The position numbers and the translations under genes are program-made. Below the pieces are notes generated by a model. That model saw only the letters and a list, made by a program, of their open reading frames with translations, made no database searches and was not told the DNA's origin. 64,000 nt of DNA from assembly GCF_022846255.1 (NCBI RefSeq), contig NZ_AP025682.1; one strand, written 5' to 3'. Below are positions 8,052-20,075 of the stretch, one piece after another. Source of the stretch: Escherichia coli. Its GTDB lineage: Bacteria > Pseudomonadota > Gammaproteobacteria > Enterobacterales > Enterobacteriaceae. The first letter of the stretch is position 1. Every line of letters starts with the position of its first letter.

Positions 8052-9191
8052 TTAGTACAGAGAGTGGGTGTTACGTTCAATATCTTCTTTGGTGATACGA
8101 CCGAACATTTTCCAGTAACACCAGGCGGTGTAGAGCAGAATGATCGGTACCAGAACCACCGCAACCCAGGTCATGACGTTAAGCGTCAGCTGGCTGGAAG
8201 TTGCATCCCACATTGTCAGACTTGCGTTCATCATGGTGCTGGACGGCATCACAAACGGGAACATTGCGATACCGGCAGTCAGGATGATGCAGGCCAGCGT
8301 CAGGGAGGAGAACACAAACGCCCACGCGGCTTTATCCATACGTGCAGTCAGGATGGTCAGCAGCGGCAGAACCACACCCAGTGCCGGAATAGCCCACAGA
8401 ATTGGCGTGTTGTTGAAGTTAACCAGCCATGCGCCAGCTTCACGAACCACTTCTTTATTCAGCGGGTTAGAGGCTGCGTAATGGTCCATTGTCGATTTCA
8501 CGACATAACCATCGATACCGTACATCACCCATACGCCAGCCAGTGCGAAGCAGACCAGCGTCACCAGTGCCGCCACCTGAGCCGTTGCACGGGTACGCAG
8601 GTGCAGTTCGCCCACGGTACGCATTTGCAGATAGGTTGCGCCCTGAGTAATGATCATCCCTACGCTCACCACACCTGCCAGCAGGCCGAACGGGTTAAGC
8701 AGCTGGAAGAAGTTACCGGTGTAGTACAGACGCAGATATTCATCAACGTTGAATGGTACGCCCTGCAACAGGTTACCGAACGCTACACCAATCACCAGCG
8801 GCGGAACGAAGCTACCAATGAAGATGCCCCAGTCCCACATGTTACGCCAGCGGGTTTCTTCAATCTTGGAGCGGTAATCAAAACCGACCGGACGGAAGAA
8901 CAAAGACGCCAGCACGAGGATCATCGCCACATAGAAGCCGGAGAACGCAGCGGCATAGACCATCGGCCAGGCAGCAAACAGTGCGCCGCCTGCGGTGATC
9001 AGCCAAACCTGGTTACCGTCCCAGTGTGGTGCGATGGAGTTAATCATAATTCGACGCTCGGTGTCGTTACGACCGAGGAAACGGGTGAGCATGCCCACCC
9101 CCATGTCGAAACCGTCAGTGACTGCAAAACCAATCAGCAGAACGCCAACCAGCAGCCACCAGATAAAACGCAATACTTCATAATCGATCAT
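8052..9191 (-). CDS. cydB: Cytochrome bd-I ubiquinol oxidase subunit II
   Basis: 379-aa polytopic membrane ORF. Confidence 0.95.
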   Translation of the reverse strand: MIDYEVLRFIWWLLVGVLLIGFAVTDGFDMGVGMLTRFLGRNDTERRIMINSIAPHWDGNQVWLITAGGALFAAWPMVYAAAFSGFYVAMILVLASLFFRPVGFDYRSKIEETRWRNMWDWGIFIGSFVPPLVIGVAFGNLLQGVPFNVDEYLRLYYTGNFFQLLNPFGLLAGVVSVGMIITQGATYLQMRTVGELHLRTRATAQVAALVTLVCFALAGVWVMYGIDGYVVKSTMDHYAASNPLNKEVVREAGAWLVNFNNTPILWAIPALGVVLPLLTILTARMDKAAWAFVFSSLTLACIILTAGIAMFPFVMPSSTMMNASLTMWDATSSQLTLNVMTWVAVVLVPIILLYTAWCYWKMFGRITKEDIERNTHSLY

Positions 9192-9206: not shown

Positions 9207-10775
9207 TTAGCGTGCCGGCTGAGTAGTCGTGGAAGACTGCTCAAAGTGATAGCGACCGGTTTTCAGGCTGCTTGGGCCGAGGCGTGCAAACTTGAACATT
9301 AAGAACAATTCTGCCACCAGGAACAGGGTATACAGGCCGCAAATCAGCACCATTGAGAAGATGAGATCGCCTGCGGTCAGTGACGAGTTCGCCACAGCTG
9401 TCGGCAGCACTTCACCGATAGCCCACGGTTGGCGGCCATATTCAGCCACGAACCAGCCCGCTTCTACAGCAATCCACGGCAGCGGAATACCGTACAGCGC
9501 GGCGCGCAGCAGCCATTTTTTCTCGCCAATGCGGTTGCGGATGACACTCCAGAAAGAGAGCGCAATGATTGCCAGCAGCAGGAAGCCACACGCCACCATG
9601 ATACGGAACGCGAAGTACAGCGGCGCTACACGCGGAATGGAGTCTTTGGTTGCCTGTTGAATCTGAGCTTCAGTCGCATCAGCCACGTTTGGCGTATAGC
9701 GTTTCAGCAGCAGACCGTAACCGAGATCTTTCTTCATGCTATTGAACTGGTCACGAACGGCCTGGTCGGTAGAACCAGAACGCAGTTGTTCGAGCAGAGA
9801 GTACGCCTTCATCCCGTTACGAATGCGTTCTTCATGCTGCACCATCAGTTCTTTCAGGCCGATAACTGGAGTATCCACGGAACGCGTTGCAATGATGCCC
9901 AGCGCGTAAGGGATCTGGATCGCAAATTTGTTCGTCTCCTCTTCCTGATCAGGAATGCCGAACAGAGTAAAGGCAGCAGGTGCAGGTTGCGTTTCCCACT
10001 CGGCTTCGATAGCAGCCAGTTTGGTTTTCTGCACGTCGCCCATTTCGTAACCGGATTCATCACCCAGAACAATAACAGACAGAACGGCAGCCATACCGAA
10101 GCTGGCAGCGATAGCAAAGGAGCGTTTAGCGAAGGCGAAGTCACGACCTTTCAGCATATACCATGCGCTGATACCGAGGATGAACATCGCGCCAGTCACA
10201 TAACCAGAAGCTACGGTGTGAACGAATTTCACCTGAGCAACCGGGTTAAGCACCAGCTCGGAGAAGCTCACCATCTCCATACGCATAGTTTCAAAGTTGA
10301 AATCGGACGCGATTGGGTTTTGCATCCAGCCGTTTGCAACCAGAATCCACAGTGCGGACAGGTTTGAACCGAGCGCCACCAGCCAGGTGACACACATATG
10401 CTGAACTTTACCCAGACGATCCCAACCGAAGAAGAACAGACCTACAAAGGTGGATTCGAGGAAGAAGGCCATCAGACCTTCGATTGCCAGCGGCGCACCG
10501 AAGATATCCCCTACATAGTGGGAATAGTAAGACCAGTTAGTCCCGAACTGGAACTCCATGGTCAGACCGGTAGCCACACCCAGAGCAAAGTTGATACCAA
10601 ACAACTTGCCCCAGAACTTGGTCATATCTTTATAAATCTGTTTGCCGGAAAGGACGTAGACCGTTTCCATAATGGCCAGCAGGAACGCCATACCGAGCGT
10701 CAGTGGCACAAAAAGGAAGTGGTACATCGCGGTCAAGGCAAACTGTAAGCGCGACAGTTCGACTATATCTAACAT
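9207..10775 (-). CDS. cydA: Cytochrome bd-I ubiquinol oxidase subunit I
   Basis: Translation [20 protein letters not shown]...; start taken at second Met of track ORF (522 aa). Confidence 0.95.
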
Positions 10776-11450
10776 CATGACTCCTTGCTCATCGCATGAA
10801 GACTCCGAGAGTGAACCCCGTTAGAAAGGGTCACACGCATGCCCCAATACAAAATTATTTGCTCGCCTCTATCGTTGCCATTTCATCAAAAGAGGAAAAG
10901 ACAATGATAAAAAAGTTACAAATGTGTTAATGAATAAACCAAATTGATCCCGTAATTATATTACGCCGCAAAATCCTTACAATAAACAGGTTTTTATTGA
11001 GCAAATTTGCATTTTTCGACAGTGATCAATTTATAGCGAAATTGTCACGATCTCACCAATTTGATCTACAACAATTTATCGTGTTTTGCAGATTTTTTTC
11101 AAGAATTAAAAATTGATTTATATCAAAATCAACCACATATGTTAATTATGTGTGAATCATGAGCCACTGGTAACTTTATTGTTAATTTATTGTAACAAAA
11201 CAGCACGGTAAATTACCCACATGGAAATATATAGATAAAAAACCAGTATTTTATTTAACAAAGCCGCTTTATCGACTTTTTATAATACTAATTAGTTAGA
11301 GTAGCTACTTTATTGCCATTTTACATAACATATTTTTATCAACGTTAATTGATTGTTGTCTTTATGAGCAACGTACTGTAAATCCGTCACTTATTGTTTC
11401 ATTGGTAATAATCACAAGAAGAAATAGATACCTTAGGTATAGTCAGATGG
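10776..11450. promoter_or_regulatory. AT-rich region upstream of cydA; probably includes the cydAB promoter/regulatory region, extent uncertain
   Basis: Non-coding AT-rich DNA immediately 5' of cydA; cydAB is known to have a long complex upstream control region. Confidence 0.4.
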
Positions 11451-12103
11451 AACAAGGATTTTTAAAATAAAATATATATGGTATTAATATTTCCCGATCT
11501 GTATTCAATGATTCGCTCAAAGATTGAAAATCAAGAGAAATTGTTATAGCAGTGATACGAAACAACAAAACGGAATGATTGCCAGCCGTTAGAAAACACC
11601 GGACACTCTCGTGTAAAAAGCTACCCTGTCTATGGATATAGCGATATCCACTCATCAAGCGTGGACTGAATGATATTCAGCTCCATATGGGCGGAAACCT
11701 GGAGGATAAATACGATTTCGCCGTTGGAATCAAGGTTGTTCTGCAATATCTACCAGACTGCTTCAATTTATCTGTTTTGGCAGTGCAATAATCTTAATTT
11801 AACTATTTGAAGATGATGATATTGTCAGATGCCAGAAATTTAGTAATCTGGAGAACCGTGTCTATGATCACTAAATATTAAAGTAATAGTCGATAATTCA
11901 GTAGCACATCGGGTAATATAACGTATTGATACATAATCATATTAAAAAATTCGTGATTAAATAACATAAGAATATGTTTTATTATCATTAAAAAACCTTC
12001 TATTTCCATCATCCTTAAGATAATAAAACAGCGAATGATGGATAACTTGACCAGAAAAACAAGCAAGCATATAAAATTAAAAAATATGATTCCACTTTCA
12101 TTT

Positions 12104-13219
12104 TTATAAAATGGCATCGTGAAGAGCGAGTTGATAATGCTGCAATGCATCAGCGTCCTGTCCAGCAGTTTCATAAATTTTGGCAATGTTATAATAGGAG
12201 TTAGCGCGCGTTGTCGCCGCATTTACCCCACTCGCTAACGAGATCGCTTTACGATTTGCCCAAATTGCTTCCGCTATGTTGCCATTTTTCTGATACGCCA
12301 GACCCAGGTTACTAAATGCCTGTCCGTAATTGCCGTCTAATTCTGTTGCCTGTTGGAAGAGTTGAATGGCTTGCTCAAGTTGACCGGTTTTATAAACAGC
12401 TTCACCTTCGCGATTATATTTTCTTGCCAGTTGAGTATCTCCACTGTTTTGCATCGCAGGCGAAGCCGGAGCTGAAGAGTCCGTCGCAGGCATTATCACA
12501 GTGGCTAAATCCCTGACGTCTAATGTGGTGTCGTTAAAATTGGCGCTGGTAACAGAGTTGATATCTTCAAACTCGCCGTTTGGATTGAGTTTAAACACGG
12601 TCCAGATGTTCCCTCGTTTTCCAGCAGGGACACTATAACTACGTACCAGGGAGCTCCCTACATAAACAAACACTCTTGCCTTACTGGCAGAGAGATAATT
12701 ACTGTTGGGCAACCCTTTATTGCTATAGTCCTGCACGGCATAGATGTAACTTTCACCAAAATGCTTTTTGCTGATAGTGACAGTTTCTGGTCCATAGCTA
12801 TCCGTATCATCAACATCCAGATTGGCATCAGTTCCCTCTTTACTATCAAAATAGATATGTCCGCCAGGGAAGATCAAATGCGAATCAAGATCAAAAGGCT
12901 TTTCGCCCCAGCTCAAAACTACACGCATGCCATCCAGATTCGTCATCACCGGACTGATAGCATAAGTCATGCCAGCGCACGGACATTTGACCACCAGATT
13001 GGAATACCCCTCTTTTTTGACGATTAATAGAGCATCTTTATTATCAGCAAATGAAGTCCCCAAACTAATGCTGCCCGAAGTATTTGTGGTTCCAGAAACA
13101 GATTGTGCGCCATTGCGTTGCAGCGTCATCGATGCTCCTTCAATGCGTTTATCTTTCACTGTCGCACTTAAAATATCGATATTTACATCGGCCGCATAAA
13201 CGTCCGAATTTATACCCAT
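12104..13219 (-). CDS. Hypothetical protein, probably exported: N-terminal beta-rich region (PEGA/carboxypeptidase-regulatory-like, then a region with DLDSHL and LDVDDTDSYGPE motifs), low-complexity linker, C-terminal TPR repeats. Possible N-terminal extension to 13267 with no canonical start
   Basis: 371-aa ORF in track; TPR-like helical repeats near C-terminus (AFSNLGLAYQKNGNIAEAI..., YYNIAKIYETAGQDADAL); in-frame upstream codons encode a signal-peptide-like KKKIVLPVALALMGINSDVYA-ADV. Confidence 0.7.
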   Translation of the reverse strand: MGINSDVYAADVNIDILSATVKDKRIEGASMTLQRNGAQSVSGTTNTSGSISLGTSFADNKDALLIVKKEGYSNLVVKCPCAGMTYAISPVMTNLDGMRVVLSWGEKPFDLDSHLIFPGGHIYFDSKEGTDANLDVDDTDSYGPETVTISKKHFGESYIYAVQDYSNKGLPNSNYLSASKARVFVYVGSSLVRSYSVPAGKRGNIWTVFKLNPNGEFEDINSVTSANFNDTTLDVRDLATVIMPATDSSAPASPAMQNSGDTQLARKYNREGEAVYKTGQLEQAIQLFQQATELDGNYGQAFSNLGLAYQKNGNIAEAIWANRKAISLASGVNAATTRANSYYNIAKIYETAGQDADALQHYQLALHDAIL

Positions 13220-13357
13220 CAGGGCCAGAGCAACCGGCAGAACAATTTTCTTCTTGTATAAATGCTTTTACAGAACGGAGAGGGGATATTTTGCCGGGCA
13301 TTATTGCGCAGAAGATGGGAAAAAAGCAGTGGGCAAACTTTTCAGATTAGTGCCCGA

Positions 13358-13458
13358 ATAAAAAAGGCCATCATAAGATGGCCAACCATGTCGAAACCGA
13401 CAGCCCTTCGCCCCTCCTGTAGAGGGAAGCGGCGAGGGCTATTTCTTATTACAGATAT
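13358..13458 (-). ncRNA. sdhX: sucD 3'-UTR, expected position of the 3'-UTR-derived sRNA SdhX (RybD), ending at the sucD terminator
   Basis: Region directly 3' of sucD stop on minus strand, ending in hairpin ggccatc-ataa-gatggcc plus U-run (13358-13383); SdhX is known to derive from the sucD 3'-UTR. The sRNA sequence itself was not checked from memory. Confidence 0.55.
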
Positions 13459-14328
13459 TTATTTCAGAACAGTTTTCAGTGCTTCACCGATATCCGCCAG
13501 GCTGCGAACGGTTTTCACGCCTGCGGCTTCCAGAGCAGCGAATTTCTCATCCGCAGTCCCTTTACCACCGGCAATGATCGCACCTGCGTGACCCATACGT
13601 TTGCCTTTCGGCGCAGTCACACCAGCGATGTAACCCACAACTGGCTTGGTAACGTGCTCCTTGATGTACGCCGCTGCTTCTTCTTCAGCGCTACCGCCGA
13701 TCTCACCGATCATCACGATCGCTTCGGTCTGCGGATCTTTTTCGAACATTTCGAGGATGTCGATAAAGTTAGAACCAGGGATCGGGTCGCCGCCGATACC
13801 GACACAGGTCGACTGACCGAAACCGTAATCCGTGGTCTGTTTAACCGCTTCATAGGTCAGCGTACCGGAACGGGAAACGATACCCACTTTACCCGGTTTG
13901 TGAATGTGACCCGGCTGGATACCGATTTTGCATTCCCCCGGGGTGATAACGCCTGGGCAGTTCGGGCCGATCATACGAACGCCTGCTTCATCCAGTTTCA
14001 CTTTCACCGTCAGCATATCCAGCGTCGGGATGCCTTCAGTGATGGTGATAATCAGTTTGATGCCTGCATCGATAGCTTCCAGAATGGAGTCTTTGCAGAA
14101 CGGTGCTGGTACGTAGATAACAGAGGCGGTAGCGCCAGTAGCAGCAACAGCTTCACGCACGGTGTTGAACACCGGCAGGCCGAGGTGGGTAGTACCGCCT
14201 TTACCTGGGGTTACGCCGCCAACCATTTTAGTGCCGTATGCAATGGCCTGCTCTGAGTGGAAAGTCCCCTGGCTACCGGTAAAGCCCTGGCAGATAACCT
14301 TGGTGTTTTTATCAATTAAAATGGACAT
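13459..14328 (-). CDS. sucD: Succinyl-CoA synthetase alpha subunit
   Basis: 289-aa [48 protein letters not shown]. Confidence 0.95.
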
Positions 14329-19794: not shown

Positions 19795-20075
19795 CTGCAT
19801 TTCTTTTGTAGGCCGGATAAGGCATTCACGCCGCATCCGGCGCTGTTTGCCTGATGCGACGCTTGCGCGTCTTATCAGGCCTACGGTTTCTGCATTTCTT
19901 TTGTAGGCCGGATAAGGCGTTCACGCCGCATCCGGCACTGGTTGCCTGATGCGACGCTTGTGCGTCTTATCAGGCCTACGGTTTCTGCATTTCTTTTGTA
20001 GGCCGGATAAGGCGTTCACGCCGCATCCGGCACTGGTTGCCTGATGCGACGCTTGCGCGTCTTATCAGGCCTACG
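19795..20075. repeat. Three tandem REP/BIME-type palindromic units between sucA and sdhB
   Basis: Near-identical ~98-bp units containing gccggataaggcgttcacgccgcatccggc and gatgcgacgcttgcgcgtcttatcaggcctac. Confidence 0.85.

Follow-up and report, generated by a model that had tools for sequence, protein, structure and literature searches.

An intact SdhX small RNA beside a probable TPR pseudogene in the polymorphic sucD-cydA segment of Escherichia coli

Introduction

SdhX (RybD) of Escherichia coli K-12 and Salmonella is a type II, 3' UTR-derived small RNA (sRNA) of the sdhCDAB-sucABCD operon that is processed by RNase E and depends on Hfq. RNase E frees the 3' UTR from the transcript, and Hfq binds the terminator hairpin and its U-tail. 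In E. coli K-12 MG1655, the ncRNA gene sdhX (b4764) is annotated on the 101 nt directly 3' of sucD. SdhX has a conserved seed, UUCGACAUGGU, just 5' of the terminator, and the core of the seed, CGACAU, pairs with the first codons of ackA (PMC6393394). Repression of two further targets depends on other residues: fdoG requires G62, and katG requires C34 in the variable upstream part of the RNA, as seen with a C34G mutation (PMC6393394). Moreover, the katG-pairing region is specific to E. coli (PMC6393394).

Here, we analyze the sdhX locus in a 64,000-nt stretch of E. coli DNA, referred to below as the window, in which a gene for a tetratricopeptide repeat (TPR) protein follows the sRNA. An earlier note on this DNA, made from the sequence, had drawn attention to the junction. 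We find that SdhX itself is intact, that the TPR gene behind it is probably no longer a normally expressed gene, and that the arrangement is most simply an old one. Features are collected in Table 1.

Results

SdhX of the window. The sdh-suc operon lies on the minus strand, with the TAA stop codon of sucD at 13461 to 13459, and the sucD gene of the window differs from that of K-12 at 25 of 870 nt. Past the stop codon, the minus strand reads AUAUCUGUAAUAAG...GGUUUCGACAUGGUUGGCCAUCUUAUGAUGGCCUUUUUUAU. The stretch from 13458 to 13358 aligns without gaps to K-12 sdhX (b4764), in the same layout and with 97 of 101 positions identical. Positions 1 to 44 and 47 to 82 are those of K-12. The A and U at positions 45 and 46 (13414 and 13413), within the upstream hairpin, are both G in the window, which adds pairing (predicted fold, -49 kcal/mol in the window versus -42 kcal/mol in K-12). 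Position 83 (13376), in the terminator loop, is G in K-12 and U in the window, and position 100 (13359), 3' of the six U residues, is G in K-12 and A in the window. The entire sucD 3' UTR of the window folds with a z score of -5.9.

Table 1. Coordinates of the features discussed in the text, in window positions
Feature	Position	Strand	Remarks
sucD	13459..14328	(-)	289 aa; last gene of sdhCDAB-sucABCD; from the ORF list and RefSeq annotation of colinear loci (sucD WP_000025458.1)
sdhX (SdhX/RybD)	13358..13458	(-)	101-nt sRNA from the sucD 3' UTR; homology to K-12 b4764
katG-pairing stretch CCGCUUCCCUCUAC with C34 (13425)	13419..13432	(-)	same as K-12; inferred limits of the 14-bp duplex
G62 (13397) and seed UUCGACAUGGU (13395-13385, core CGACAU)	13385..13397	(-)	same as K-12
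Rho-independent terminator and Hfq-type 3' end	13360..13383	(-)	stem 13383-13366, U6 13365-13360, then AU
Left breakpoint of the polymorphic sucD-cydA segment	13357..13358		from alignments; blastn end points 13358-13360
Spacer from SdhX to the former TPR start	13256..13357	(-)	102 nt; conserved block GCGCAAUAAUGCCCGG at 13309-13294
Destroyed initiation region	13253..13267	(-)	AAAAGCAUUUAUACAAG in the window versus AAAAGGAUUUAUACAUG in intact alleles
Remnant of a gene for a secreted beta-sandwich and TPR protein	12104..13255	(-)	383 codons open from the former start
Deletion scar, 259 bp	12125..12126		versus ST131 THO-015 locus 10145-10403; between CTGGCG micro-repeats (blastn)
AT-rich noncoding stretch	11158..12103		GC 0.23-0.37; only short, implausible ORFs; absent from K-12

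The earlier note had reported a hairpin and U-run at 13358 to 13383. The terminator scan, the predicted fold and the uniqueness of the sequence in the window bear this out, on the minus strand. The terminator, GGCCAUCUUAUGAUGGCC, has a 7-bp stem with five GC pairs and a 4-nt loop by terminator scan, and the stem is unchanged from K-12. Folded by itself, the hairpin has a predicted energy of -12.1 kcal/mol (z score, -4.2), and the 24-mer of the terminator occurs once in the window and in none of 100 shuffles. Moreover, the terminator lies within a stretch that aligns to the annotated sdhX gene of K-12 along its full length, and thus it reflects homology and not chance likeness. A search of Rfam 15 at the gathering score and at an E value of ≤10 did not find a match to an SdhX family, and the top match was a spurious one to the RyhB terminator (16 bits). 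Thus, the assignment rests on homology to K-12 sdhX as annotated and on the seed sequence from the literature. Of 5,426 complete E. coli genomes, 5,373 contain the 3' half of the sRNA gene. We conclude from the comparison with K-12, which the earlier note had proposed and in which both seed and terminator proved intact, that the 101 nt flanking the junction are the known SdhX sRNA, with the seed, G62, the C34 region and the terminator stem unchanged.

Two side observations concern the same operon and sRNA. The sdhX alleles of UTI89 and ST131 carry a U36-to-C change (CCCUCU to CCCCCU) inside the K-12 katG-pairing stretch and might therefore regulate katG differently; at 13423, the window has the same base as K-12. 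In addition, three tandem naRNA4/BIME-type REP units (Rfam RF02564; 80 to 88 bits) lie at 19811 to 20071 on the plus strand, between sdhB and sucA. Elsewhere in the window, seven tRNA genes and the CpoB/ybgF RNA thermometer (RF02782; 153.7 bits) occupy 979 to 1679 and 2606 to 2744 on the minus strand, the expected content of the region that follows tol-pal in this species.

The junction and the replaced segment. Colinearity with K-12 and ST131 stops just past the U-run, and the 3' end of the sRNA is indeed preserved at the junction, as had been proposed. Beyond the shared UUUUUUAU, K-12 and ST131 run on with GCTTATCGCG, the end of the convergent mngR gene, and the window runs on with TCGGGCACTAATCTGAAAAG. 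Homology to K-12 resumes at 11157 by blastn, in the upstream region of cydA (10778 to 9207). The window therefore has 2.2 kb (13357 to 11158) in place of the 5.9 kb of K-12 that includes mngR, mngA, mngB and a REP-containing spacer. Judged by these alignments, the segment is a replacement relative to K-12 and not a simple insertion.

The 2.2 kb missing from K-12 consist of the TPR ORF and an AT-rich noncoding stretch. The GC content of the TPR gene body, at 0.43 to 0.47, deviates mildly from the 0.52 to 0.55 of the flanks, and only the noncoding part between 12100 and 11000 is strongly AT rich. No integrase, transposase or tRNA was found in the ORF list between 13357 and 11158. Having no mobility genes and a site that is shared by four genera, the segment does not resemble a horizontally inserted island. 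We note that in SCU-172, the part that is deleted from the window carries, on the opposite strand, an annotated hypothetical protein of 125 aa. One other origin was considered for the 88 nt past the terminator, namely, that they are the leftover 3' end of mngR after a deletion; instead, the alignments match them to the region preceding the TPR gene of ST131, E69 and Pseudocitrobacter, and not to mngR.

Haplotypes and gene order. The segment differs among E. coli lineages. The K-12 haplotype reads sucD-sdhX-mngR(-)-mngA-mngB-cydA and lacks the TPR gene, that of ST131 reads sucD-sdhX-mngRAB-TPR(397 aa)-cydA, and that of the window reads sucD-sdhX-TPR-cydA. The junction of the window haplotype is present in 546 of 5,426 complete E. 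coli genomes (about 10%), including UTI89, Nissle 1917 and ATCC 11775. The mngB-TPR junction is present in 566 genomes, O25b:H4-ST131 among them, and every copy is at least 99% identical. In a pangenome study, ST131 was the sole B2 sequence type, of those examined, with mngA, mngB and mngR (PMC9836092), which fits the window haplotype being the usual state of phylogroup B2 outside ST131. Thus, the junction is a common and already annotated haplotype boundary, next to an sRNA that is already characterized.

Gene order outside E. coli indicates how old the arrangement may be. A search for homologues of the TPR protein provided no outgroups, as the 120 matches listed were all 100%-identical E. 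coli entries, and relatives were instead taken from a scan of one genome per species, which gave 31 loci. In every Enterobacterales locus of that scan, the TPR gene lies between sucD and cydA in the orientation of sucD, with the loci of Pectobacterium brasiliense and Pectobacterium sp. CFBP8739 covering the cydA side only. The order sucC-sucD-TPR-cydA is found in Pseudocitrobacter vendiensis, Enterobacter sp. BIGb0383, Pectobacterium fontis and Pectobacterium zantedeschiae, whose proteins are 76%, 63% and, for both Pectobacterium species, 62% identical to the intact TPR protein. In these four loci with sucD, a terminator hairpin follows sucD and is succeeded by a spacer of 125 to 190 nt and then by a TPR ORF that opens with ATG or GTG and encodes a signal peptide. 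The Pseudocitrobacter terminator even comes with the SdhX seed (UUUCGACAUGGUUGGCCAUCGUAUGAUGGCCUUUUUU), and mngRAB of Pseudocitrobacter is on the far, downstream side of the TPR gene.

The protein family is otherwise patchy (Bacteroidota, Cellvibrio and Helicobacter), and neither sucD nor cydA was found adjoining the TPR gene at the nonenteric loci. As a separate observation, the nonenteric homologue adjoins a gene of about 380 aa of the polysaccharide deacetylase family (PF01522 in 4 of 4 tested) that is missing from all enterobacterial loci checked.

The adjacency of sucD, terminator and TPR gene is, on gene order, most simply interpreted as ancestral within Enterobacterales. By the same comparison, the TPR gene is more likely the resident, and mngRAB of K-12 and ST131 is more likely the newcomer. 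The cross-genus synteny could in principle also have arisen by repeated transfer, through homologous recombination in the conserved sucD and cydA flanks. The earlier note had called the TPR gene an insert behind SdhX, a description that holds only relative to K-12. Because the sucD-TPR-cydA order is common to three other enterobacterial genera, the TPR gene is no recent insert.

Lesions in the TPR gene. Intact TPR alleles (AAAAGGATTTATACATGAAGAAA; ST131, E69 and SCU-172, with an equivalent in Pseudocitrobacter) have a Shine-Dalgarno (SD) sequence, AAAGGA, an 8-nt spacer and a start that reads ATG-Lys-Lys-Ile-Val-Leu-Pro-Val-Ala-Leu-Ala-Leu. The window reads AAAAGCATTTATACAAGAAGAAA at 13267 to 13250. 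The earlier note had placed the TPR start within about 100 bp of the terminator on the same strand, and indeed, the homologous start position (13255 to 13253) is 103 nt after 13358 on that strand. That position, however, reads AAG in the window versus ATG in intact alleles, and the SD sequence reads AAAGCA versus AAAGGA, such that the predicted duplex with the anti-SD sequence weakens from -5.4 kcal/mol in intact alleles to -0.1 kcal/mol. The exact 34-mer with both changes is found in 540 genomes, and the same 34-mer with the ATG restored is in none of the genomes searched. The first in-frame ATG, GTG or TTG is the ATG at 13219, 139 nt downstream on the same count, and it has no SD sequence (duplex, -2.9 kcal/mol). 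Moreover, ATG 13219 lies inside the signal peptide, past the hydrophobic core IVLPVALAL, and a product from it begins MGINSDVYA/ADV. Such a product would not be expected to be exported.

The 3' end is also damaged. The 259-bp deletion takes the last 21 codons of the gene, and YTEKNKPSYEEAIARVKTKM is replaced by LHDAIL and a stop codon. The long C terminus is the ancestral form: it is full in SCU-172, and the Pseudocitrobacter protein matches query residues 1 to 396. About 6 of the 546 genomes, SCU-172 included, keep the direct SdhX-TPR junction with the SD sequence, the ATG and the C terminus all intact, and they represent the same arrangement in an undamaged state within E. coli. Relatives show further decay, with a frameshift in FHI_NMBU_03 and an internal deletion in E69. 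The TPR ORF of the window lacks what a functional copy would have, namely, a start codon and ribosome binding site at the conserved position and a full C terminus. We infer that the lesions abolish expression of the TPR protein, and the gene is probably a pseudogene or at least is probably not normally expressed.

Annotation treats the gene differently. PGAP annotates the window/B2 allele as an intact protein of 371 aa from ATG 13219. We note that PGAP also starts the SCU-172 protein at the same internal ATG (385 aa), though an upstream ATG with a good SD sequence gives the conserved 397 aa. Matches to Pfam TPR_1, TPR_2 and TPR_12 in the TPR ORF are above threshold, NCBIfam matches to the protein are TPR-only and all under their cutoffs, and an AlphaFold model of the intact 397-aa allele has a pLDDT of 81.8. 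The JGI label of the intact protein, YfaP/DUF2135, was also considered; residues 1 to 261 have no Pfam match at an E value of ≤10, and the name is kept as a source label only. The three RefSeq protein accessions of the TPR gene were not found in the literature searched.

In the window, as in strain 2A and UTI89, the ORF remains open over 383 codons, and pairwise dN/dS among TPR alleles is 0.15 to 0.24, as expected under purifying selection. Window positions 12939 to 13081 (nt 175 to 317 of the TPR ORF) match ST131 and have 23 differences from strain 2A and 22 from UTI89, a pattern that indicates that the window allele is a recombinant mosaic. Because the alleles are recombinant mosaics, dN/dS is uninformative about both pseudogene status and the time since the start was lost. 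Much of the divergence among alleles may have arisen in functional copies.

Spacer and read-through. Within the spacer that separates SdhX from the former TPR start, a block, GCGCAATAATGCCCGG (13309 to 13294), is conserved across genera in a four-way alignment of the window, E. coli E69, ST131 and Pseudocitrobacter. By eye, the block holds a -10-like AATAAT (about 13303 to 13298) without a recognizable -35, and in intact alleles it may indicate a promoter that is weak or needs an activator. A sigma-70 consensus scan of the minus strand from 13357 to 13220 did not find a promoter. The fold of the spacer (z score, -1.0) gives no notable structure and hence no sign of a riboswitch or a second terminator. 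We note that a 50-codon ORF (13149 to 13301, minus strand), out of the TPR frame, begins at the ATG of the conserved AATAATG block, and that the equivalent ATG in Pseudocitrobacter opens a 10-codon ORF that stops just 5' of the SD sequence. The ORF from the AATAATG block has no upstream SD sequence and is probably no gene, though a leader peptide is possible.

The earlier note had suggested that read-through from sdh-suc could influence the TPR gene. The geometry agrees: the two are on the same strand, about 100 to 140 nt apart, and because no sigma-70-like promoter was found in the spacer, read-through could, on geometry, supply the transcripts. Normal protein expression is another matter, as read-through could not give the normal TPR protein because the SD sequence, the start codon and the last 21 codons are lost. 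A putative read-through product has been described only for plasmid-borne SdhX2 of Salmonella (PMC6393394). The SdhX terminator is predicted to be strong, and an abundant sRNA could accumulate only if termination at it were sufficiently efficient. Read-through from sdh-suc would feed at most a gene remnant that is probably untranslatable, and the consequence for protein would be small.

A second terminator-like hairpin in ST131. The mngRAB genes of ST131 lie between two sequences, GGCCATCTTATGATGGCCTTTTT and GGTCATCTCCGGATGGCCTTTTT, that are 83% identical and share the same 7-bp stem. The hairpin after mngB in ST131 THO-015 (locus 8845 to 8900; compare window 13400 to 13352) is the 83% copy of the SdhX terminator. 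On its 5' side, the sequence is degenerate and aligns loosely to the SdhX seed region, and on its 3' side, the sequence is homologous to the SdhX-TPR spacer of the window. An SdhX 3' module duplicated around mngRAB would fit either an insertion that duplicated the terminator or a loss by recombination between the copies, and the outgroups favor insertion.

Discussion

Taken together, the locus is likely best explained as an intact SdhX beside an old, decaying TPR neighbor in a polymorphic sucD-cydA segment. In such a picture, the transcript of about 10 kb from sdhCDAB-sucABCD would end at the intrinsic terminator (13383 to 13360, minus strand). RNase E would cut SdhX free, and the seed, together with the Hfq-bound hairpin and U-tail, would repress ackA and, in E. 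coli, also fdoG and katG. The break after the U-run would be the left edge of the polymorphic segment, where mngRAB is absent and a co-oriented TPR gene follows. The TPR gene would have been lost from K-12-like E. coli, and mngRAB would have been added at the same boundary. In the window lineage, the resident TPR gene would be decaying, its SD sequence and ATG mutated, its 3' end deleted and the body of its ORF still open. Transcription continuing past the SdhX terminator would enter the remnant, and the resulting transcripts should not yield a normal secreted protein.

Other explanations deserve consideration. Were the hairpin a chance terminator-like motif, the 3' UTR might give no functional sRNA in the source strain, and the terminator scan did return three sites in the region where 2.2 were expected, with zero Rfam families matched. 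We give this almost no credence, as the element is homologous base for base to an sdhX that was studied experimentally in K-12, keeps every residue tested there (PMC6393394) and has its 3' part in 5,373 of 5,426 genomes. More might be said for a functional TPR gene, inserted behind the SdhX terminator and expressed by leakage through it such that its expression is coupled to the TCA-cycle operon. The ORF is on the same strand, 103 to 139 nt downstream, with no consensus sigma-70 promoter in the spacer; co-orientation with sucD is kept in four genera; and the plasmid construct in Salmonella gave a putative read-through product (PMC6393394). Such coupling nonetheless seems quite improbable, as adjacency common to several genera does not look like a recent insert, the start codon, SD sequence and C terminus are gone from the window allele, the strong hairpin and six U residues support the buildup of an abundant sRNA, and the conserved spacer block hints at local control in intact alleles. 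Perhaps, instead, translation still begins at ATG 13219 or at a noncanonical codon such as AUU 13246 and gives a shortened, nonsecreted protein with a new cytoplasmic role. That most of the 546 genomes have the ORF annotated as intact and that dN/dS is about 0.2 would agree with continued expression, but the duplex before 13219 (-2.9 kcal/mol) is no SD sequence, the core of a signal peptide that all homologues carry is missing, and so is the last helix of the TPR module. Moreover, the open frame need not mean selection, as the time since inactivation may be too short for stop codons to appear and frameshifted and deleted copies already exist. We consider a shortened protein unlikely.

The history of mngRAB could also be read in reverse. 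The B2 layout might be the derived one, if in an ST131-like ancestor recombination between the SdhX terminator and its near-copy deleted mngRAB and brought the TPR gene secondarily behind SdhX. The terminator and its 83% copy do bracket mngRAB in ST131, the sequence on the distal side remains homologous to the window, and the breakpoint of the window falls exactly at the end of the repeat. An insertion that duplicated the terminator, however, would leave the same repeats, and Pectobacterium, Enterobacter sp. and Pseudocitrobacter have the TPR gene directly after the sucD terminator with no mngRAB between. In addition, mngRAB of Pseudocitrobacter sits on the other side of the TPR gene, and the ST131 junction is clonal (≥99% identical in 566 of 566 genomes). 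Loss of mngRAB from the B2 lineage is therefore possible but doubtful, and we prefer an old SdhX-TPR adjacency, with mngRAB added in K-12 and ST131. We speculate, more tentatively still, that the SdhX terminator module is a recombination or insertion point for mngRAB, such that mngRAB is gained and lost across E. coli through a repeated sRNA 3' end. The mngB-distal copy would then perhaps be a second Hfq-binding 3' UTR RNA, and the window would keep a single, recombined-looking copy.

For the most part, the locus is ordinary and has little significance beyond bookkeeping. The SdhX allele of the window is predicted to leave the regulation of ackA, fdoG and katG unchanged. The RefSeq 371-aa "tetratricopeptide repeat protein" of about 540 complete genomes (UTI89, Nissle 1917 and the type strain among them) has lost its ribosome binding site, start codon, signal peptide and C terminus and is probably a pseudogene. 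The sucD-cydA haplotype of most B2 strains, which lacks mngRAB and bears the TPR gene, would be the older layout and not an insertion. Finally, B2 transcriptomes may show read-through past the SdhX terminator into the co-oriented remnant, without coding consequence.

How the locus compares with known systems depends on which part is considered. The sRNA is like SdhX of K-12 in its place directly 3' of the sucD stop codon, its length of 101 nt, its seed, G62, the C34 region and the stem, and it is unlike it at four substitutions outside the tested residues, two that strengthen the upstream hairpin, one in the loop and one after the six U residues. The neighbor 3' of SdhX is a convergent mngR in K-12 and a co-oriented TPR remnant in the window. 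ST131 (THO-015, NZ_AP022549) shares with the window the same SdhX, a TPR gene of the same family (94.5% nucleotide identity over the gene body) and the cydA upstream region; it differs in that SdhX and the TPR gene are separated by mngRAB (5.5 kb) and another terminator-like hairpin, and in a TPR gene of 397 aa with an intact SD sequence, ATG and C terminus. SCU-172, Pseudocitrobacter vendiensis, Enterobacter sp. BIGb0383 and Pectobacterium spp. resemble the window in gene order, orientation, terminator and a spacer of 100 to 190 nt, but their TPR copies, unlike that of the window, have an ATG or GTG start and a full-length C terminus. In kind only, and with no relationship in sequence, SdhX is also like CpxQ, NarS and DapZ, in each of which a single terminator both closes an mRNA and supplies an sRNA with its Hfq-binding module.
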